Below, in pieces: positions 5,537-30,260 of a stretch of DNA of 55,493 nucleotides (position 1 is its first letter; the number at the start of each line of letters is the position of its first letter). Location: the IMG/VR virus record IMGVR_UViG_2663763400_000006. The stretch is one strand, 5' to 3'. The stretch is from a virus. Taxonomy: Duplodnaviria; Heunggongvirae; Uroviricota; Caudoviricetes. Position numbers and translations under genes: made by a program. The notes under the pieces are model-generated. The model saw nothing but the letters and a program-made list of their open reading frames with translations, did not search any database and was not told the origin of the DNA.

Positions 5537-6400
5537 TCATTTCGCATCTACAATAAATAACCTGTTTATCTGGCCTTTTTTAACAGTAGCCTTTGCGGTT
5601 ATAGTGAATACTGCAGATGGATCACCTTTGGTTGATATATATGCACTAAGAGCTCTAATATACGGGTTATTCTTCTTTCCTGCAGCTGGATCGCTAATTT
5701 CAGCAGTGATTCTCTTTTTTGAGTCATCACCATCTAAAATTATTTTAGCTGTCATATTTTGTGCATCAAATTCTGTAAGAAAAGCACGATACTCACGAAG
5801 ACCGAGAACTTCATCATCATCAAGCCTATCAATTTCAGCTTTATCTCTCTCATTAACTTTTAGAAGGCAGCCGTCAACATTTGTTGCAACACTTATCTGA
5901 TCGCAAGTATTACCAATAGGTGATACTGCCTGCCTTACAGAGGGGCGAAGCTCTACAGCCATTCGGTCAATCAAAGAGATCAACTTATCAATGGTTCCAG
6001 CATCCTTGTTTCCTAGTGCCTCTATGGCCTTTTCAAGTGACTGCTGCAAAGCTTTCATTTCATCTTTCTTGTTAGAATTTCTCGCAAAAATATATTGTAG
6101 TATTGCGCCAAGTATAGTTGCGGCGATCCCCGAGAACAACTGGTTCTGAGTGGCGAAGTTAAGAACTGCTTCAAGAGTAAAGCAGTTAGCTTTTGCTTCG
6201 CGTGCGTAAACCTTAACTTCCTGATAATTAATGTATTTACTATATTTTTGTGTAACAGAGAAAGAAGCTGCTGTTGAGAGAACTTTAGAAAAACCCTTTA
6301 GGGATTCTCCTAGGCAGTTCAAATCTATTTCATGATTTAAAGCATCTTTTCCGTCATACCTAAGAGAGATTTTTATATCCTGTAAAGCGTCACAATCCAT
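5537..6400 (-). CDS. Unknown 287-aa protein with one central hydrophobic segment, in the rexAB position
   Basis: ATG at 6400; AT-rich codon usage unlike flanking phage genes; hydrophobic segment [19 protein letters not shown]; co-directional with and 3' of cI, followed by a terminator. Confidence 0.6.
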
Positions 6401-6466: not shown

Positions 6467-7159
6467 TTATCCATGTTTCCTGTACGTCTGGGGCATGCTC
6501 CCAATAACCTTACCGAAGATGAACACCCGGTTCATCTCGTCTTTCTCGATCGGGTCCCACGGTGAGTAGCTCTTGTTATCAGAGATAACCAGCAGCTTAT
6601 CCTTCATCATTTGCAGGCGCTTTACATGGGCGGTGTCGTCGTACAGAAACGCATAGATGCCATCACCGTCGAAAGATTTAACCGTGATATCAACGAACAG
6701 CAGATCACCTGGTTCGATCGTTCCTGACATGCTGTCACCACGCACGTTAATGATGCGGATATTTTCCGCCTTCCTGCCATCGAACATGTGACGAGCATCG
6801 TCAAACGAGTACTCAACCGAGCGTAGGACTTCTACAAACTCACGGTTGATGACTCCCGGCCCAGCACTGACTTCTATATCAAGAACGTCAATCTTGAAGT
6901 ATTTGGAATGGTTGACAGTAGGCTTCCCTGATTGTTGACCGTCATTTCTCATCGGGCCTATGCCTGATGAGAGCCACTCTGTTCGAACACCCAATGCATT
7001 AGCTATTTCAACAATTTTTGTTGAGCCGCGCGCGTTGCCGCTTGTCAGTCTCCAGATTGTGGGTTGAGCTACGCCAGACGCCTTTGCAAGAGCGCCTTGA
7101 GACATCCCAGATTGTTCCATCGCTAGGTTTAAGCGATCAGCAAGAGTTTCTTTTTTCAT
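6467..7159 (-). CDS. cI: CI-type repressor (XRE helix-turn-helix plus S24 LexA-like autopeptidase)
   Basis: N-terminal HTH (MSQGALAKASGVAQPTIWRL), C-terminal peptidase motifs (VRGDSMSGTIEPGDLLFVD ... HVKRL); start taken at MKKETL (7159), the ORF could extend to 7216. Confidence 0.85.
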   Translation of the reverse strand: MKKETLADRLNLAMEQSGMSQGALAKASGVAQPTIWRLTSGNARGSTKIVEIANALGVRTEWLSSGIGPMRNDGQQSGKPTVNHSKYFKIDVLDIEVSAGPGVINREFVEVLRSVEYSFDDARHMFDGRKAENIRIINVRGDSMSGTIEPGDLLFVDITVKSFDGDGIYAFLYDDTAHVKRLQMMKDKLLVISDNKSYSPWDPIEKDEMNRVFIFGKVIGSMPQTYRKHG

Positions 7160-7170
7160 AAGTTTTAATT

Positions 7171-7240
7171 TATACGCTTGCGTATTGATGGTCAAAACAC
7201 GTTTTGCTATTGCCATGGTTAATACGCATTGCTATTATTC
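7171..7240. promoter_or_regulatory. Putative OR operators with divergent pRM/pR
   Basis: cI-cro intergenic region holding repeated ATACGC..GCGTAT and TTGCTATT motifs shared with the putative OL. Confidence 0.45.
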
Positions 7241-12881: not shown

Positions 12882-13826
12882 TTGATAGGATCAAAAATGG
12901 CACAACAGAGAACTACCTCCCTCAGATCCATACCTTTAGACTTAGATGTTAAGCAAGAGGCTGTCATTAACGGTATAGAAATGGGGGTACTCGATAACGG
13001 AATTCCGTACCTTACTCAGAATGGGTTGGCAAATGTTTGTGGTGTTCAGCGTTTGCGAATCAAGGAAATTACCGATGAGTGGGCTCAATCTGTTGAGAAC
13101 GGTATTTTCAAAAAAGGAAGAATGACTTTTATTGGTACATATCTTCTTAATGAAGGTTTTACAGATGAAAAACTTTATATACCAATAATTCGAAATGGTG
13201 TTGAGTACCATGCTTATCCAGATGTTGTATGCATGGCTATACTTGAATACTATGCCTTTGAAGCAAAACAAGCAGAAAGTGAGACTGCAATTAGATCTTA
13301 CAGAGAGCTTGCTAAAAAAGGCCTCAAGACATTTATATACGAGGCGCTAAAATATCAACCGGAGGACCCGTGGAGGCATTACCATGACAGAGTATCTTTA
13401 TTAAAAGATAAGGGAACCATACCTGATGGGTATTTCATTATATTTAATGAAATTGCAGGTATGATGGTAGATCTCATCAATGCTGGATTAGCGATTAATC
13501 AGCATACCGTACCTGATGGCAGTGTTGGTTCTTGCTGGGCGCGTCACTGGAAAGCAAAGGGGTTAGCAACAGAATTTGGAGAAAGAGTAGACTGTGAGCA
13601 TTATTACCCTGAAGATTTTCTTCAGGCAAGTTCCAATCCTCAGATCATTAATGCCTATCCTGATTCTGCATTGTCAGAGTTTCGTAGATGGTTTAAGCAT
13701 GAATATTTAACCACAAAGTTCCCACCGTATATTCTTAAAAAATCAAACGTGCTTCCTGGTGGTACAGAAGATGCTAATCGTCTGATAGAAGCTTTCAAAA
13801 AATCAGAGCTAGAAAATAAACCATAA
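12882..13826 (+). CDS. Hypothetical 314-aa protein (accessory gene in the nin region)
   Basis: Long AT-rich ORF with an upstream AT-rich leader; no domain I can assign with confidence. Confidence 0.5.
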   Translation: MIGSKMAQQRTTSLRSIPLDLDVKQEAVINGIEMGVLDNGIPYLTQNGLANVCGVQRLRIKEITDEWAQSVENGIFKKGRMTFIGTYLLNEGFTDEKLYIPIIRNGVEYHAYPDVVCMAILEYYAFEAKQAESETAIRSYRELAKKGLKTFIYEALKYQPEDPWRHYHDRVSLLKDKGTIPDGYFIIFNEIAGMMVDLINAGLAINQHTVPDGSVGSCWARHWKAKGLATEFGERVDCEHYYPEDFLQASSNPQIINAYPDSALSEFRRWFKHEYLTTKFPPYILKKSNVLPGGTEDANRLIEAFKKSELENKP

Positions 13827-15511: not shown

Positions 15512-15868
15512 ATGCGTGATATGTATGAAGTAATGGATCGTTGGGGAGCTTGGGCTGCTTCAGACAATAGCGGAGTGGACTGGCAGCCGATAGCGGCTGG
15601 TTTCAAGGGACTTTTACCTCATGGCAAAAAGTCACGGATTCAGTGTGATGATGACGAAGGCATCATGATAGACAGTTGTGTGGCTCGGTTGAGAAGGTAT
15701 AAACCAGAGGAATATGAGCTCATCATCGCCCACTTTGTTATCGGTATCTCATTACGCACTATTGCGAAGAAGAGAAAATGCTCTGATGGCACAATTAGGA
15801 AGGAACTGCAAACTGCAATGGGGTTTGTTGACGGCTGTTTAGCAATGTTAGCTTATAGTATGGCATAA
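15512..15868 (+). CDS. Q: Late-gene antiterminator Q (phage 82/21-type)
   Basis: MRDMYEVMDRWGAWAASDNSGVDWQPIAAGFKGLLP... with Cys/His-rich core; position after rusA. Confidence 0.7.
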   Translation: MRDMYEVMDRWGAWAASDNSGVDWQPIAAGFKGLLPHGKKSRIQCDDDEGIMIDSCVARLRRYKPEEYELIIAHFVIGISLRTIAKKRKCSDGTIRKELQTAMGFVDGCLAMLAYSMA

Positions 15869-17062
15869 AAAATAAAATAGATTTACTGCCGATTTTTCAA
15901 AAAAGACTGGGAACTGTTTATATCCAACGTAAATAAGGCCTCCATAAAACATGGCTGATGCGAGATATTTAACAGTTCTCATCCTTTTTTTAGCTTTATC
16001 AATCAAACCTGTAATGCTACTCTTAATACTATCTGCATTATCTTTGATTTCTTTATTTTCTTCAAACTTTAAATACTTATCGAAAGCGGACTCCACTCGA
16101 GAACGTAAGTTGTCGAATGTTTCATTGAATATCTCAATAGAAATGTAATTGACTTTTTTTATCATCCAAAGTCCTGCGATAATCAATATTGCTTCGGTTG
16201 TTTCATTAGCCTTCACTAAGCCACCAGCTGCTATTAATGCACCGGGAATAGTCAATGCTTTTGTCTGATTAGATGATATGAATTCGTTAATTTTACTCGT
16301 GAACTCAAGATTTTTCTCATCGAGTTCGTTAAGAATTTTATTTACAGAAAACCTCTTTGTGTAAATCTCATATAGTTCATCATATTTTTTCCTGACGAGT
16401 TCAGTAGAGTTAAGCAAGTCAAAGAAATTGAACGTACCATTTGCTTTAAATACTTCGTTTATGGCTGAGCGTATAACGAGCTTGCGCTCGCTTTTGTGTA
16501 AATCATTGATTTTTATTGTGTCGAGAAGCTCCTTTATAATTTCATATTTAAGAGACGAGTTCGATAAGCGATTAATCTCGCTATATTGTAAAAAATGCGT
16601 GAGTTCGACTGTATAACTTTTGTCTTCATTGGTGAAAAATAAGACAGAGCAGTCACTGTTATGATGATCAGCAATTAATGAAAGGATATCTTTCCACATA
16701 AAGAAAATATGGATTTTTTCGATGCTTTCATTCTTAGAAGTAGGGAGTATTAACGGCGTTCCGATGATATAATTTTTCGGAAGAGCGTTTTGGGTGTTTA
16801 CTCTAGACCAAAAAGACTCAACATTCTCATAAATTATAGCATCATCCCAAGATGAAGCTTGGCGATCTAGCCAAATTTCATTATTTTCGATGCAGGTTGT
16901 TGCCTTTTTATAACCTATAGATTGTAACAGTCTAATTATTTCAGAACTATTTACAATAACAATGCTTTCTTCAAGACTTATGACAGTGTAGTAGCCCTCA
17001 ACTCTGCTTGAGGCTCCGTTAATAATCTGCGCTAATCTTGATAAGTCATCAGCAATTGTCAT
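15848..17062 (-). CDS. Unknown 404-aa protein with C-terminal transmembrane helices (cassette gene 2)
   Basis: ATG at 17062, 2 bp after the upstream gene stop; strongly AT-rich; hydrophobic helices near the C-terminus (LTIPGALIAAGGLV, AILIIAGLWMI, YLASAMFYGGLIYVGY). Confidence 0.6.
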   Translation of the reverse strand: MTIADDLSRLAQIINGASSRVEGYYTVISLEESIVIVNSSEIIRLLQSIGYKKATTCIENNEIWLDRQASSWDDAIIYENVESFWSRVNTQNALPKNYIIGTPLILPTSKNESIEKIHIFFMWKDILSLIADHHNSDCSVLFFTNEDKSYTVELTHFLQYSEINRLSNSSLKYEIIKELLDTIKINDLHKSERKLVIRSAINEVFKANGTFNFFDLLNSTELVRKKYDELYEIYTKRFSVNKILNELDEKNLEFTSKINEFISSNQTKALTIPGALIAAGGLVKANETTEAILIIAGLWMIKKVNYISIEIFNETFDNLRSRVESAFDKYLKFEENKEIKDNADSIKSSITGLIDKAKKRMRTVKYLASAMFYGGLIYVGYKQFPVFFEKSAVNLFYFLCHTIS

Positions 17063-17064
17063 TA

Positions 17065-18240
17065 TTAGCTGTCTCTATATCTTTTGAGTTCATCATAATT
17101 TGCCTGACTCAATTTTATCACAATTTCGCATTTGTTGTCAGTGAGAATTACAGGCTTATTTGACTTTTCGTCTCCAATAGCTCCACGCATTATTTTCAAC
17201 TTAAAATTATTGTCGTTATCTGCCACTTCAATTGTAAGCGCGCTTTCAGCTGCTTTAGGAGTTGGTTCAAATTGAGGGTCAATCTGGAAACCATTAAGAT
17301 TAACAAAATCGACAAACGTTCCCTTACATTTGTGTGAATCAGTCAGGCATGAGTCAATTATTTTTGAAATATCCTCTATCTTAACGGACTTATTTCCGTG
17401 TTTATCTTTTGATTTTTTTTCCAGTAAGGATTTAACTTCATTGTCAATAGTATCACGCAGTACACGACCGAGTGAGTTTTTACTAGCAAAAATATCTATA
17501 GCACTGAATAATTGCTGAATGCTTCTTTTATTGTCCGAATCATGTCGGCAACCTAATGAGTCTTTGAAAAAATCGCTTTTAGATTTACCTTGCAAGAAAT
17601 GTACATATGAGTCACCCTTGTTTTCTGGATAACTGGCTTCGAATAAAGTTAAATCGAACATCGCAGCCTGCCGTAAGGCATCGGTATTAATTGGATTTAA
17701 TCTTGTTGGGGTCAACTTATCCGAATCAAAGTCATAGGCGCTTTGTTTATCAACCATTACGATTAGAAGTTTCCCCAAATCCTCTGGTTCGGTAGACTTA
17801 TAGTGGATGAAAACAACGCTCCCCCCCTGAAGTTGGGCAACTCTCGATTCGTTATTAGCATTATGTTTAAGCTTCTCTATTATAGCTCTAGATAAATCAA
17901 TGAATTCATTATTCTTATTAATGTATTTTTTTAGGATCGTAGGAATGGATGAAGGGTTGTGATCTGAGTCTAGGAAGTTATGAAATTTGTTTTTTCGGCT
18001 AAATTTTTTCTCAATTCTGGTTATGAATTCAGATGTGACTTCATTTTTTAGATCCCAAACTTCACCTAATCGATAATCAAATGCTCTTGAATCATTTTTT
18101 TCAAGATTTGCTGTTACAGCACCAATAGGAAAGTACGATTGTTTGCCCAGCACTACAACATGAGGCGTGGCACCGCATTTATCGCAAGCTACAGTTGGGT
18201 CGTCAAGAACATTGCCACATTCTAAACAAGTTATATCCAT
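17065..18240 (-). CDS. Zn-ribbon plus YejK/NdpA-like (NA37 nucleoid-associated family) protein (cassette gene 1)
   Basis: N-terminal CLECG...CDKCG zinc ribbon; motifs GGSVVFIHYK and YVHFLQGKSKSDFFKDSLG resemble YejK ([32 protein letters not shown]) as recalled; AT-rich. Confidence 0.55.
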   Translation of the reverse strand: MDITCLECGNVLDDPTVACDKCGATPHVVVLGKQSYFPIGAVTANLEKNDSRAFDYRLGEVWDLKNEVTSEFITRIEKKFSRKNKFHNFLDSDHNPSSIPTILKKYINKNNEFIDLSRAIIEKLKHNANNESRVAQLQGGSVVFIHYKSTEPEDLGKLLIVMVDKQSAYDFDSDKLTPTRLNPINTDALRQAAMFDLTLFEASYPENKGDSYVHFLQGKSKSDFFKDSLGCRHDSDNKRSIQQLFSAIDIFASKNSLGRVLRDTIDNEVKSLLEKKSKDKHGNKSVKIEDISKIIDSCLTDSHKCKGTFVDFVNLNGFQIDPQFEPTPKAAESALTIEVADNDNNFKLKIMRGAIGDEKSNKPVILTDNKCEIVIKLSQANYDELKRYRDS

Positions 18241-18357
18241 TATATATCCCGAATTATAAGAATGAATTTTTATGTGGCTGAAAATTCTATCAAAACACTA
18301 ACGCGTACGCAAAAAATATCGTAATCTGTTAAGTGTGCTCACTTCGCCACACAGCTT

Positions 18358-18390
18358 AAACCCGCCATCGAGCGGGTTTTGTCGTTTCTG
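18358..18390 (+). terminator. tR'-like terminator of the late leader transcript
   Basis: Hairpin cccgccatcgagcggg followed by a T-tract, upstream of the holin gene. Confidence 0.45.
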
Positions 18391-18531: not shown

Positions 18532-18858
18532 ATGCCTCATAACCCAAATACATGGCTGGAGTTGGTCCAGAGCTGGTGGCGTGGAGACACACCGCTGGGC
18601 GCAGTGATTATGTCGATTGTTATGGCTGGTTTACGTATTGCCTATTTTGGCGGTGGTGGCGGCTGGAAGCGAAAAACACTCGAAATTCTACTCTGTGGCG
18701 CTCTGACGCTGACTTTTGCATCCGCTCTTGAGTATGTCGGATGGCCTAAATCACTATCTGTTGCCATTGGTGGTGGGGTGGGGCTGATCGGTGTTGATGC
18801 TATTCGTGGGGCTGCAATGAGAGTAATCGGTAACAAGTTTGGTGGCTCTAAGGAGTAA
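18532..18858 (+). CDS. Putative holin (not lambda S-like)
   Basis: 108-aa ORF with hydrophobic helices and a charged C-terminus, directly upstream of the endolysin. Confidence 0.6.
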   Translation: MPHNPNTWLELVQSWWRGDTPLGAVIMSIVMAGLRIAYFGGGGGWKRKTLEILLCGALTLTFASALEYVGWPKSLSVAIGGGVGLIGVDAIRGAAMRVIGNKFGGSKE

Positions 18859-27365: not shown

Positions 27366-27403
27366 GTGTGTTGCAATCATCTCTGTATTGCAGCTTGTAT
27401 TGC
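27366..27403. repeat. TGTATTGCA-type direct repeats upstream of the island integrase (possible arm sites)
   Basis: ctgtgtgttgcaatcatctctgtattgcagcttgtattgc; a similar pair occurs near the right end at about 38014-38040. Confidence 0.4.
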
Positions 27404-27418
27404 TTTTTGGGGCTAAAA

Positions 27419-28654
27419 ATGGCTGGCGAGAACAAACTGAGCGACAAAGCGCTTAAAGGATATCTGGGGAAACCCAGAGAAAAGCAGATCACCATTGCTG
27501 ATGGAAAGGGGCTTTCTATTCGTGTGAGTACTAAAGGGGCTGTGAGCTTTGTTTTCTTCTACAGGTTAGCAGGTGGCCGGGCTGCTCCGGTCTGGCTAAC
27601 GTTGGGTAAATATCCTGATATGTCACTCAAACAGGCAAGGGAAAAGCGCGACGAGTGCCGTGGTTGGTTGGCTGACAAACGTGATCCGCGTATCCAGATT
27701 AAGATTCAGGCTGAAGAACGCTTAAAGCCGGTCACTGTGGAGGATGCACTAAATTACTGGTATGAAAATTACTGTAAGGTGCGTCGTAAAACTCATGCTG
27801 TAACGCTTGGCAGATTTCGAAAGCATATCTTTCCCTATATCGGTCATTTGCCCGTAAATGACACTCACCTATATGAATGGCTGGACTGTTTTGACCGAAT
27901 TAAACGTAATGCACCAGTTATGGCGGCGTATGTTTTTTCTGACACTAAATTAGCTCTTCGTTTTTGTCGGGTACGCCAGTACGCGACGTGTGATGCTTTA
28001 AAGGATTTGCGCATGAGTGATGTGGGGCAGATTGCAGGTAAGCGGGATCGGGTTCTGGATGAAGCCGAACTCGGCCAGCTCTGGAAGGCAATTTTTGTCG
28101 AGCCTGATTTAAAACTAATGTCTGAATACACGCGAAAAATGTTTGTGCTTTGTACAGTATTTGGATGTCGAATGAGTGAAGCCCGATTATCAGAATGGAG
28201 CGAATGGGATCTCGAAAGTTGGGTTTGGACTGTACCAAAAGATCACTCAAAAACTGGTGTTGAAATCGTCAGACCAGTACCTGAAATTCTACGACAGTGG
28301 GTAACGGATGTTCACGAAGAGACAAAACATACTGGTTATGTGCTGGGAAGTCTGCGAATTAGAGAAAGCGTAAGCAAGATTGGGGGGAAAATCGGTAAAC
28401 GTTTGGGCCATGAAAAACAATGGTCACTACACGACCTTAGAAGAACGCTATCTACTCATCTAAGTGATCTCGGTGTTGAATTTTATGTAGTAGAACAACT
28501 GTTAGGCCATGCGCTACCTGGCGTGGCAGGTGTTTACAACCGGAGTAAGTTTATGGCTAAAAAACTGGATGCTCTGGAACTCTGGACTACATATCTCAAT
28601 AGCATCGCAGGTGCTGATTCAAAAGTGACAATCCTCAAACAAAAGGTTGGTTAA
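27419..28654 (+). CDS. int: Island tyrosine integrase (P4/CP4-57 type)
   Basis: MAGENKLSDKALKG...GKGLSIRVSTKG N-terminus typical of P4-family integrases; C-terminal HDLRRT...LGHA...YNRSK catalytic motifs. Confidence 0.85.
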   Translation: MAGENKLSDKALKGYLGKPREKQITIADGKGLSIRVSTKGAVSFVFFYRLAGGRAAPVWLTLGKYPDMSLKQAREKRDECRGWLADKRDPRIQIKIQAEERLKPVTVEDALNYWYENYCKVRRKTHAVTLGRFRKHIFPYIGHLPVNDTHLYEWLDCFDRIKRNAPVMAAYVFSDTKLALRFCRVRQYATCDALKDLRMSDVGQIAGKRDRVLDEAELGQLWKAIFVEPDLKLMSEYTRKMFVLCTVFGCRMSEARLSEWSEWDLESWVWTVPKDHSKTGVEIVRPVPEILRQWVTDVHEETKHTGYVLGSLRIRESVSKIGGKIGKRLGHEKQWSLHDLRRTLSTHLSDLGVEFYVVEQLLGHALPGVAGVYNRSKFMAKKLDALELWTTYLNSIAGADSKVTILKQKVG

Positions 28655-28655
28655 C

Positions 28656-28883
28656 ATGAAAAAAATGGCAATTGTTGATAAAAAGGGTCTGGAGTACATT
28701 CCTAACATTGACCGAATGATCCGTGAGAAAGAATGTCGGGAGCTAACCACTCTTGCGAACAGCACACGCTGGAAGCTGGAGAAGGAAGGAAAATTTCCTA
28801 AGCGGATCAAGATTGGTTCCACTGCTGTTGCATATCGTCTTTCAGAAGTGCAGGCATGGATTCGAGGTGAGTGGGTAGTTTAA
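28656..28883 (+). CDS. alpA: AlpA-family excisionase/transcriptional regulator
   Basis: MKKMAIVDKKGLEYIPNIDRMIREKECRELTTLANSTRWKLEKEGKFPKRIKIGSTAVAYRLSEVQAWI, AlpA-like HTH; directly follows the integrase. Confidence 0.7.
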   Translation: MKKMAIVDKKGLEYIPNIDRMIREKECRELTTLANSTRWKLEKEGKFPKRIKIGSTAVAYRLSEVQAWIRGEWVV

Positions 28884-28952
28884 ATTATCTCAGAATAAAA
28901 TATTATGAATTACTGATTTGAGAATTTGTACTCAAATCAGTAATAACATTCT

Positions 28953-29489
28953 TTATAAGAGATTAAATCCAAATAAAGAGTAATCATATACCGGGGTGCA
29001 TTGCATTCCACTGAATATGCTGATGTTTTTTTCTGTTTCTATCCTTTTTTCAATAAGTTGTTGTATATTTTTACAGTACAATTTGTGTGTGATGTTATTA
29101 TCGTAAGCCTGATATAGCAACGTCAATGTTGACGCTAGGAAACATACAGATAAAATTAAAGTAACATATGCGGTTTTTTTATTTTTTGTCCATGATCTAT
29201 TTGTTTGTGAAATATAAAGAATTCTGATGTGGATAATGGTGAGAGACAATAGCAGGCCACTCAATAAAATAAGTATTGGGTTTGCGTATTTTATTAATGG
29301 TTGAGAGCAAAAAACTATTATAGCTCCTGTGACTGCGTATGAGAAAAAGGAGTAATTAAACTTCTTACTCCTTCTCTCAAGTATTTTAATTTCATCTTGT
29401 GTGGGGGTTTTAGATGCCTCTAATATAAGTTTATTGAATGTTTCTGTTATCTTGTTTTTTGTGTTTGTGGCTATTTTTTTTAGATTCAT
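28953..29489 (-). CDS. Unknown multi-pass membrane protein (island cargo)
   Basis: 178-aa ORF, extremely AT-rich, three to four hydrophobic helices; antisense to int and alpA. Confidence 0.5.
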   Translation of the reverse strand: MNLKKIATNTKNKITETFNKLILEASKTPTQDEIKILERRSKKFNYSFFSYAVTGAIIVFCSQPLIKYANPILILLSGLLLSLTIIHIRILYISQTNRSWTKNKKTAYVTLILSVCFLASTLTLLYQAYDNNITHKLYCKNIQQLIEKRIETEKNISIFSGMQCTPVYDYSLFGFNLL

Positions 29490-29839
29490 AGCATTCTAAC
29501 TCCCTTAACTTATTTATTACTTTCTCTTTATGATAAGAGAGGGGAATGACTTGGTAAAGTGATTTGTCATTAATAATGATAATCCTTGCGATAAATATTT
29601 CTGCAAGTTATTTATCTGTTTGTTGCTATCTTGTTAAGCGTTGGGTGTGGTTTATGTTTGGAGCGACTTTATTTAATCGTGATTTTATGGATTTATATTT
29701 ATATCCTGTAAGATAAGCGCATGTTAGTTCAGGAGTAGTGTCAGATAAAATTATTCGGAGTAGAACTACCTTTTCTGTTTATTGCCAGTATTTACATAGC
29801 AATGCGCCGTAGTTACTCACATCACGGCGCTGATACTAA

Positions 29840-30142
29840 TTATTCAGATTCTTTGGCTTTACGCCGCTGGAGTTCTTCACGAGCGACGGCTACGAGTTGC
29901 CCGATTTCCTCCGCTGCCTTGATGCCGATTTGTTCGACCTTAGCTAAGGCATCCAGTGAAGACACGAGGGGATTTTCTCCGCTTCCTTCTGCCTGGCGGC
30001 GGGCGATCTCACCGCGCATGGCGGTTACTATGAATCCGGCGTTGCTCTCGCCGTCCAGTTTTACGGATTCCATGCCCTCCATAACATCGTGGGGAACCCT
30101 GATCGTTGTCATTTGCGATTTTGCATTTTTGTATACAGACAT
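29840..30142 (-). CDS. Putative ribbon-helix-helix regulator (candidate island repressor)
   Basis: 100-aa ORF (MTTIRVPHDVMEGMESVKL...), divergent from the rightward island operon across a repeat-containing intergenic region. Confidence 0.4.
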   Translation of the reverse strand: MSVYKNAKSQMTTIRVPHDVMEGMESVKLDGESNAGFIVTAMRGEIARRQAEGSGENPLVSSLDALAKVEQIGIKAAEEIGQLVAVAREELQRRKAKESE

Positions 30143-30149
30143 AGTTAAT

Positions 30150-30260
30150 CACCAATTTGTTATGTGTATATCACTATACACAAAAGTGATATATAAAAAC
30201 ACTTGCAATGTATATCACCACAATATAATGTATATCTCACATTATGGTCGCTATGTATCT
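30150..30260. promoter_or_regulatory. Island divergent promoter/operator region with TGTATATCAC-type repeats
   Basis: tgtgtatatcactatacacaaaagtgatatataaaaacacttgcaatgtatatcaccacaatataatgtatatctcaca: four or more copies of TGTATATC(A/T)C in both orientations. Confidence 0.45.

Follow-up and report, generated by a model that had tools for sequence, protein, structure and literature searches.

What is the antisense two-gene cassette, rich in adenine and thymine (AT-rich), that lies between the antiterminator gene Q and the lysis genes in the virus record IMGVR_UViG_2663763400_000006? The stretch of this record analyzed here, called the window throughout, is 55,493 nucleotides long, and an earlier reading made from its letters alone (hereafter, the sequence-only reading) had guessed that positions 15848..18240 hold an anti-phage or abortive-infection module, which it could match to no named system. 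The guess was right, and the disclaimer is outdated: the cassette exactly reproduces DS-1, an anti-phage defence system of two genes that is now named, is present in NCBIfam, and has its second gene annotated in RefSeq as "anti-phage protein". The finding is thus already known, i.e., published, validated, and database-annotated, and its discovery value is low. It does serve as a calibration, in that a reading of raw sequence (an AT-rich antisense cassette, its slot, and a zinc-ribbon/YejK protein with a membrane partner) correctly foresaw a defence system. We hold with high confidence that the best overall explanation of the locus joins the identity with DS-1, a direct observation, to a mechanism that we infer and that is set out below.

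Both genes are read from the minus strand at the positions and with the lengths that had been proposed for them. Gene 1 (DS-1A; 17065..18240) is an open reading frame (ORF) of 391 amino acids, gene 2 (DS-1B; 15848..17062) is one of 404 amino acids, and the junction between them, TAA-TA-ATG, leaves a gap of 2 bp. Given the base composition of the cassette, stop-free runs of 391 and 404 codons would arise by chance with p~5e-14 and p~2e-14, respectively, and are so improbable that both frames can be taken as real. DS-1 was named by DeWeirdt, Mahoney, and Laub in their work on DefensePredictor, where the validated transcription units are numbered from DS-1 onwards (bioRxiv 10.1101/2025.01.08.631726, January 2025; Science 2026, PMC13092281). 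Table S6 of that paper gives DS-1, under the working id D390, as 2393 bp at NZ_RRVY01000002.1 220602..222994, encoding WP_000355468.1 (391 amino acids, with a YejK/NA37 and a zinc beta-ribbon match) and WP_000150292.1 (404 amino acids) (PMC13092281). Positions 15848..18240 of the window also span 2393 bp, a length equal to that of the published unit. DS-1A is identical at 391/391 residues to the sequence of WP_000355468.1 in Table S8 of PMC13092281, and DS-1B is identical over the 399/399 residues printed in the same table and at 404/404 residues to the RefSeq coding sequence that carries WP_000150292.1. No sequence difference from either accession was found, and nothing spoke against the identity. 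The architecture (zinc finger plus YejK, followed by a coiled-coil/transmembrane partner) is likewise that of published DS-1; the differences are confined to the host strain and the contig, which for the published clone was NZ_RRVY01000002.1.

The family models agree. DS-1A scores 451.4 bits against NCBIfam NF053868 (DS1_1_antiphage, "nucleoid-associated anti-phage protein"), for which the cut-off is 330 (E=2.1e-135; profile 3-369/369), and DS-1B scores 375.2 bits against NF053869 (DS1_2_antiphage), with a cut-off of 315 (E=2.8e-112; profile 1-337/337). A PADLOC search, which the sequence-only reading had advised, matched neither protein at E<=1 with v2.0.0 (2023), but that blank is uninformative because the library predates DS-1.

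The published phenotype comes from an assay in which DS-1, with its native promoter region, was carried on a low-copy plasmid in E. coli MG1655 and challenged with 24 phages (PMC13092281). In Table S7 of that paper, where all 26 occurrences of D390 were covered and the phage list for DS-1 is complete, the strongest effect is on Bas1 (Bas01), with a -log10 efficiency of plating (EOP) of 7.6 and no plaques. The corresponding values are 2.7 for Bas26, 1.7 for both Bas3 (Bas03) and T3, 0.9 for T7, and ~0 for SECphi27, in each case with small plaques, and 1.0 for T5, the plaques of which are not flagged as small; T4 is absent from the effects listed (Table S7, PMC13092281). Bas01 belongs to the Drexlerviridae (T1-like) and Bas26 to the Markadamsvirinae (T5-like), and the range of DS-1 comprises T1-like (Bas01, Bas03), T5-like (T5, Bas26), and T7-like (T3, T7) phages (PMC13092281). 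YejK is one of the domains that the same authors newly link to defence (PMC13092281).

Gene 1 had been read as an N-terminal CxxC...CxxC zinc ribbon fused to a domain resembling the nucleoid-associated protein YejK/NdpA, with a Pfam search for NA37/YejK suggested as a check, and both halves of that reading were borne out. The YejK/NA37 domain of DS-1A (amino acids 64-376; 17113..18051, minus strand) matches Pfam PF04245 (NA37) at E=1.2e-23. The AlphaFold2 model of DS-1A (predicted local distance difference test score, pLDDT, 84.8) has a sole significant fold match in the PDB (Foldseek, significance at E<=0.001), which is YejK 9be2 at E=5.5e-15, and the DS-1A family profile retrieved 9be2_A from the PDB sequences at E=2e-19. 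The two-domain fold is that of E. coli YejK/NdpA, with an alignment spanning the N-domain and most of the C-domain, but identity is only ~19%, and at 81.4 bits DS-1A does not reach the 341-bit cut-off of the YejK equivalog NF001557. DS-1A thus has the YejK fold and yet differs from housekeeping YejK. Unlike the latter, it carries the extra N-terminal zinc ribbon and does not conserve the C-domain pore residues, and its gene lies in an AT-rich mobile cassette, translationally coupled to a gene for a predicted membrane protein.

The Cys4 zinc ribbon itself (amino acids 5-22, CLEC...CDKC; 18175..18228, minus strand) was assigned by conservation of the cysteine motif, C5xxC8...C19xxC22. The motif is present in 21 of the 45 aligned DS-1A homologues, and wherever the N-terminal extension occurs, all four cysteines are kept. 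The ribbon is seen at enterobacterial, Colwellia, Thalassotalea, and Pseudoteredinibacter loci; members of the Pseudomonas-type clade carry an acidic tail in its place. Pfam zinc-ribbon models gave sub-threshold matches only (E=0.07-0.28); HHpred in the DS-1 paper matched protein A to NinF/Zn_Beta_Ribbon with 86% probability (PMC13092281). Housekeeping YejK is a nucleoid-associated protein that forms a dimeric DNA clamp, in which a basic pore consisting of R173/R176/K177 and R276/R280/K284 binds DNA (PMC11229321). The DNA-binding loop R173/R176/K177 aligns with K219/K221/K226 of DS-1A, positions that are conserved as basic in 43/45, 29/45, and 43/45 homologues, respectively.

C-terminal transmembrane helices had been predicted for gene 2, and three conserved hydrophobic segments are indeed found there, as judged from Kyte-Doolittle hydropathy and from helices in the AlphaFold2 model (pLDDT 84.7; helices 271-284, 288-331, 337-383, and 385-403). 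In order, the model shows an alpha/beta domain, a long helix (220-268), a hydrophobic hairpin (271-284 plus 288-307), a charged helical hairpin, and hydrophobic helices at 366-383 and 385-403. The predicted cytoplasmic N-terminal region (amino acids 1-268; 16259..17062, minus strand) thus consists of the alpha/beta domain and a conserved stalk helix (amino acids 220-268); it has a net charge of -8 and an isoelectric point of 5.3, and the region is acidic in 40 of the 41 aligned sequences. It is followed by the hydrophobic helical hairpin (amino acids 269-307; 16142..16258, minus strand) with an invariant QxKA...P.A..A, and then by the third hydrophobic segment (amino acids 366-383; 15914..15967, minus strand), after which comes the hydrophobic C-terminal helix (amino acids 385-403). 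The segments at amino acids 269-285, 291-307, and ~366-383 have modest Kyte-Doolittle values of ~1.5 in the E. coli protein, the third being weak there, whereas distant homologues have the same segments at the same positions with transmembrane-strength hydropathy of 2.0-2.6, the third included, and the peaks are kept across all 41 sequences.

Conservation in DS-1B is concentrated in the stalk and the first hydrophobic helix, as the most conserved columns lie within amino acids 226-280. The best are R237, F238, S239, V240, N241, K242, Q266, K268, A269, L270, T271, I272, P273, G274, and A275; Q266, K268, A269, P273, A275, and A278 are invariant. The protein matches PHROG 5023 (E=2e-158), but a Pfam scan of DS-1B and its aligned homologues (41 sequences) yielded no family for DS-1B and none shared among them, and PDB sequence searches with either DS-1B alone or its family profile found no relative. 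Neither Pfam, the PDB sequence searches, nor the fold search revealed an enzymatic domain. The weak top fold matches of DS-1B were CorA-type and ClyA-family proteins, which score no better than designed helical bundles. DS-1B was not assigned to the CorA-type channels, for lack of both a significant structural match and the GMN signature motif, nor to the ClyA-family alpha-pore-forming toxins, for lack of a significant structural match.

If the two genes form one system, they should travel together, and the sequence-only reading had asked whether such pairs recur in defence contexts. They do. A profile search with gene 2 of species-representative genomes found 12 loci, each of which has a DS-1A homologue directly before gene 2 in the same orientation; loci in Pseudomonas aeruginosa and Enterobacter have the same A-then-B arrangement, and some homologous pairs overlap by 14-17 bp. 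Homologues of A that are closer to the E. coli protein tend to be paired with closer homologues of B (correlation of the identities, r=0.75, n=12), and all distant pairs tested exceed both equivalog cut-offs (NF053868 and NF053869). The two genes are thus strictly co-inherited across the Gammaproteobacteria. Distant pairs are found beside DarTG in Colwellia, beside a cytosine methyltransferase and a PD-Lambda-5_A-like protein in Phytobacter, and beside a PtuA-like ATPase (PDC-M01A, Septu-like) in Pseudoteredinibacter. In Pseudomonas aeruginosa (contigs L001-L003, 6001..8422), a pair with 38% and 28% identity that passes both equivalog cut-offs adjoins a filamentous prophage of the Pf type, which has genes for Zot and DUF2523, so DS-1 is also carried at or near inovirus prophages; at the N-terminus of these members, an acidic tail takes the place of the zinc ribbon. 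The sequence-only reading had named three outcomes that would count against it, an absence of conserved co-occurrence, an absence of any resistance or toxicity phenotype, and a clear match to an unrelated housekeeping function, and none of them was found.

Within E. coli, 106 of 5426 complete genomes carry a copy of the cassette that is >=99% identical, and it also occurs in three PLSDB records, where it adjoins a Q gene. In one complete E. coli genome (NZ_OZ547033.1; locus L007, 7218..9167), IS1 splits DS-1A into two fragments and DS-1B is intact, a natural knock-out of the putative sensor gene which suggests that DS-1B alone is tolerated. Among the INPHARED phage genomes, neither a nucleotide search with the cassette nor tblastn with DS-1B found a match; DS-1A found there only stand-alone YejK-like genes of Pseudomonas phages (e.g., F116, H66, LKA5, and phiC725A) at ~20% identity and E~1e-7. 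DS-1 is therefore seen in prophages and chromosomes and not in the free phages of that collection. The YejK/NdpA-like proteins of the Pseudomonas phages are candidates for a phage nucleoid protein or for a decoy against defences based on nucleoid-associated proteins.

How might the two proteins act? The closest guide is PANGU, a set of operons that pair a YejK-like nucleoid-associated protein (NAP) with an effector (Li et al., bioRxiv 10.64898/2026.04.06.716658). Pag1A, the NAP of type I PANGU, is bound to the chromosome and is released when T4 degrades the host genome; the freed NAP then binds the acidic "DNA-mimicking" domain of Pag1B, a GRel toxSAS, and activates the enzyme, and a DNA-binding-defective NAP is toxic when co-expressed with its partner (bioRxiv 10.64898/2026.04.06.716658). 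Type II PANGU pairs Pag2A, again a YejK-like NAP, with Pag2B, a protein that is acidic in its N-terminal domain and membrane-spanning in its C-terminal one (bioRxiv 10.64898/2026.04.06.716658). Both type II genes are required, neither is toxic alone, and the phenotype is abortive; on infection, Pag2A fused to green fluorescent protein (Pag2A-GFP) leaves the nucleoid, and Pag2A binds the Pag2B N-domain with a dissociation constant (KD) of 19 nM (bioRxiv 10.64898/2026.04.06.716658). Of the phages T4, T1, and T5, the type II system PANGU-Ecu blocks only the first.

By analogy, DS-1A would be a YejK-type dimeric DNA clamp resident on the chromosome, and it would be set free once an infecting phage destroys or remodels the nucleoid of the host. 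Free DS-1A would then bind the mildly acidic cytoplasmic N-terminal domain, or the stalk, of membrane-anchored DS-1B, which would in turn use its conserved hydrophobic hairpin to compromise the inner membrane, and the infection would abort. We consider such a release-and-activate mechanism, with DS-1B as a membrane-disrupting effector, the most likely of the mechanisms weighed here, at about even chances of being correct. It is preferred because the architecture is the same, the DS-1B N-terminus is acidic, and the restricted phages degrade host DNA. Degradation of host DNA is a property of T1 and T5, and T3 and T7 also degrade host DNA. DNA binding by DS-1A, interaction between A and B, membrane damage, and abortive infection would all be expected of DS-1 on this analogy.

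The likeness to type II PANGU is one of architecture, as described. DS-1 is bicistronic with the YejK-like gene first and its neighbour within 40 bp (here, 2 bp), and DS-1B has predicted C-terminal transmembrane helices and a mildly acidic, presumably cytoplasmic N-terminus; furthermore, type II PANGU is, like DS-1, found in E. coli linked to other defence genes. DS-1 may belong to type II PANGU. The two differ in range, as PANGU-Ecu acts on T4 and not T1 or T5 and DS-1 on T1-like and T5-like phages with T4 unlisted, and because of this they are not obviously one system. They also differ in that the partner in type II PANGU has a highly acidic DNA-mimicking (DMK) N-domain whereas its counterpart in DS-1B is mildly acidic, and in that DS-1A has a zinc ribbon and the PANGU text never mentions zinc. 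With type I PANGU, DS-1 shares the class of YejK-like sensor, the operon logic, and the proposed trigger, i.e., release of the NAP on chromosome degradation; the type I effector is, however, a soluble alarmone synthetase, and DS-1B a predicted membrane protein. Since the phage range of DS-1 is complementary to that of PANGU-Ecu, a comparison of the two could reveal what YejK-type sensors detect.

Several observations weigh against the release-and-activate mechanism. The phage ranges of DS-1 and PANGU-Ecu are reversed, although this comparison is qualified by differences in promoter and copy number. Where YejK has its C-domain pore residues R276/R280/K284, DS-1A has P328/E332/T336, and these positions are basic in only 18, 15, and 0 of the 45 homologues; since this trio is replaced, clamp-type DNA binding by DS-1A is not guaranteed. 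On the side of DS-1B, the transmembrane segments of the E. coli protein are only weakly hydrophobic, and amino acids 1-268 contain 38 D/E versus 30 K/R, a mild acidity that makes no striking DNA mimic and is far less than that of classical DNA mimics. Foldseek of DS-1B against the PDB gave nothing better than E=0.42, and hence no significant structural relative. Finally, PMC13092281 contains no mutagenesis or mechanism for DS-1, which is not among the mutated systems of its Fig. 5.

Differences of this kind could of course mean that DS-1 is a YejK-based system mechanistically distinct from type II PANGU. In such a case, the zinc-ribbon clamp may answer a cue that is provided by T1-like, T5-like, and T7-like phages and not by T4, and the conserved stalk and QxKA...P.A..A hairpin may constitute a new kind of membrane effector, one without a structural relative. 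In addition, Q-dependent late transcription could silence DS-1 when the resident prophage goes lytic, because the cassette of lambdoid prophages is always antisense between Q and the late terminator. All these parts, of cue, effector, and silencing, would have to hold together, and jointly we find them doubtful.

Somewhat less probable again is direct exclusion, in a manner resembling Kiwa or superinfection exclusion. Here, DS-1B would hold DS-1A at the membrane, where the latter would clamp incoming linear phage DNA and block genome entry, circularization, or replication, and the cell would survive. The affected phages all have linear double-stranded DNA that is injected through the inner membrane, and DS-1B is predicted to be anchored there. 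Clamps of the YejK type bind DNA irrespective of its sequence, with a preference for long molecules (PMC11229321), and the block to Bas01 is complete (EOP <10^-7), which is stronger than with many abortive-infection systems. However, most of the affected phages show small plaques and a modest drop in EOP, as is typical of abortive or partial systems, and type II PANGU, the analogous system by architecture, is abortive, with its NAP residing on the nucleoid and not at the membrane before infection. Neither protein matched Kiwa or any other PADLOC model, and the sole significant fold match of DS-1A is to YejK. Kiwa itself (KwaA/KwaB) was rejected as a candidate on these two counts, there being no PADLOC profile match at E<=1 and no support from the fold.

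The roles of the two proteins could also be reversed, although we rate this as distinctly improbable. DS-1B would be a membrane sensor of infection, responding to envelope perturbation or a phage protein, and DS-1A the effector that clamps or condenses DNA and thereby stops replication and transcription of the phage (and host). The PANGU authors themselves raise the idea that PagB senses infection and licenses PagA (bioRxiv 10.64898/2026.04.06.716658); YejK modulates topoisomerase IV and gyrase (PMC11229321), which makes a DNA-directed effector conceivable; and the zinc ribbon and divergent C-domain pore residues mark DS-1A as specialized relative to YejK. Yet the NAP of type I PANGU has been demonstrated to be the sensor or activator, and its partner to be a toxic enzyme, and operons of this class keep the NAP while varying the partner (toxSAS, lysozymes, or transmembrane proteins), a pattern of common sensor and swappable effectors. 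The stalk and hydrophobic hairpin are, moreover, the most conserved parts of DS-1B, as expected of an effector module. A last alternative would deny that defence is the primary function and make the pair an accessory nucleoid protein of the prophage with a membrane partner, serving lysogeny maintenance, chromosome tethering, or lysis timing. In its favour are the place of the cassette, flanked by Q and the lysis genes, the housekeeping role of YejK as a nucleoid-associated protein (PMC11229321), and the stand-alone YejK-like proteins found in some Pseudomonas phages, both lytic and temperate. This alternative is nevertheless essentially excluded, as the cloned pair gives phage resistance outside any prophage (PMC13092281). 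Pairs beside DarTG, restriction-modification-like and Septu-like genes, and a Pf prophage are independent of lambdoid lysis genes, and DS-1A is far under the YejK equivalog cut-off (81 versus 341 bits).

The setting of the cassette is that of a moron in a DLP12-type lambdoid prophage. Its GC content of 34.9% (gene 1, 36.1%; gene 2, 33.7%) is far below that of its flanks (49.4% and 49.3%) and of the window as a whole (49.3%), so the contrast with the phage backbone that had been noted earlier holds. An identical copy in RefSeq is in a DLP12-type prophage with ybcK, ybcN, ninE, ybcO, rusA, ylcG, and Q. To the left in the window lies the antiterminator gene Q (15512..15868, plus strand; Pfam PF06530, E=2.7e-47), the final 21 bp of which convergently overlap the 3' end of DS-1B; Q abuts the cassette in this prophage, and likewise in the Shigella phage SfII. 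To the right on the plus strand come a gene for a lambda-family holin (18532..18858; TIGR01594) and then those for endolysin, Rz/Rz1, and Bor, in that order. The homology breaks give the borders of a mobile cassette: similarity to the Q of Shiga toxin (Stx) phages ends at ~15839, inside the end of Q, and backbone homology with SfII starts again at ~18292. A cassette-specific region upstream of DS-1A (18241..18293, minus strand), delimited by the borders and by hexamer matches, contains the promoter-like TTGATA-16-AAAAAT at 18293..18266 and, from direct reading of the sequence, a perfect TATAAT at 18258..18253, both on the minus strand.

Between the cassette and the holin gene is an intrinsic terminator on the late-gene strand (plus), with a strong hairpin at 18358..18379 that has an 8-bp stem with five GC pairs and is followed by a T run, the feature extending to 18389. 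It lies to the right of the cassette, is the only good plus-strand terminator noted around it, and falls within a conserved backbone segment common to SfII and SfIV, upstream of the holin gene. The feature at 18358..18389 is probably tR'. The plus strand from Q to the terminator held no convincing sigma-70 match for the late promoter pR'. The sequence-only reading had put the cassette exactly in the moron slot that holds stx in Stx phages, and this was correct only in part: the cassette does lie between Q and the terminator and holin, but stx genes occupy a position after tR', and the cassette is upstream of the terminator.

The Q-to-holin slot is used by more than DS-1. In lambdoid prophages of Enterobacter and Pseudescherichia, the pair once more runs antisense, flanked by a PF06530 Q on one side and the lysis genes on the other. 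In SfII (NC_021857.1; locus L008, 841..2455, minus strand), this slot is taken instead by two other antisense genes, which match the PADLOC candidate system PDC-M53 (A, E=2e-32; B, E=3e-54). In the DLP12 of K-12, the slot is occupied by nmpC. Since different cassettes, DS-1 and PDC-M53, are found in one slot, the region between Q and holin behaves as a defence hotspot of exchangeable cassettes in lambdoid prophages of this type.

Elsewhere in the window, a 314-amino acid ORF of the nin region at 12882..13826 (plus strand; 38.7% GC), ~2 kb upstream of DS-1, matches BstA in PADLOC (E=3.8e-121), and its RefSeq homologue is a "BstA C-terminal domain-containing protein". By its sequence, this ORF is a second known type of prophage-encoded abortive-infection defence gene here, and with BstA and DS-1 in one prophage, several anti-phage modules appear to be stacked. 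At 5537..6400 (minus strand), an AT-rich ORF of 287 amino acids contains DUF7946 (E=3.8e-55) and DUF7947 (E=1.4e-18) and has a weak PADLOC match to PDC-S42 (E=1.5e-4). It is directly downstream of a gene for an S24/HTH CI-like repressor (6467..7216, minus strand), a position presumably analogous to that of rexAB in lambda, and it could be another candidate for a moron or a defence gene. A tyrosine integrase (Arm-DNA-bind_3 plus Phage_integrase) is encoded at 27368..28654 (plus strand), and a very AT-rich stretch at 28251..30250, where GC falls to 32%, has ORFs without family; together, they probably mark the prophage end or a second integrated element.

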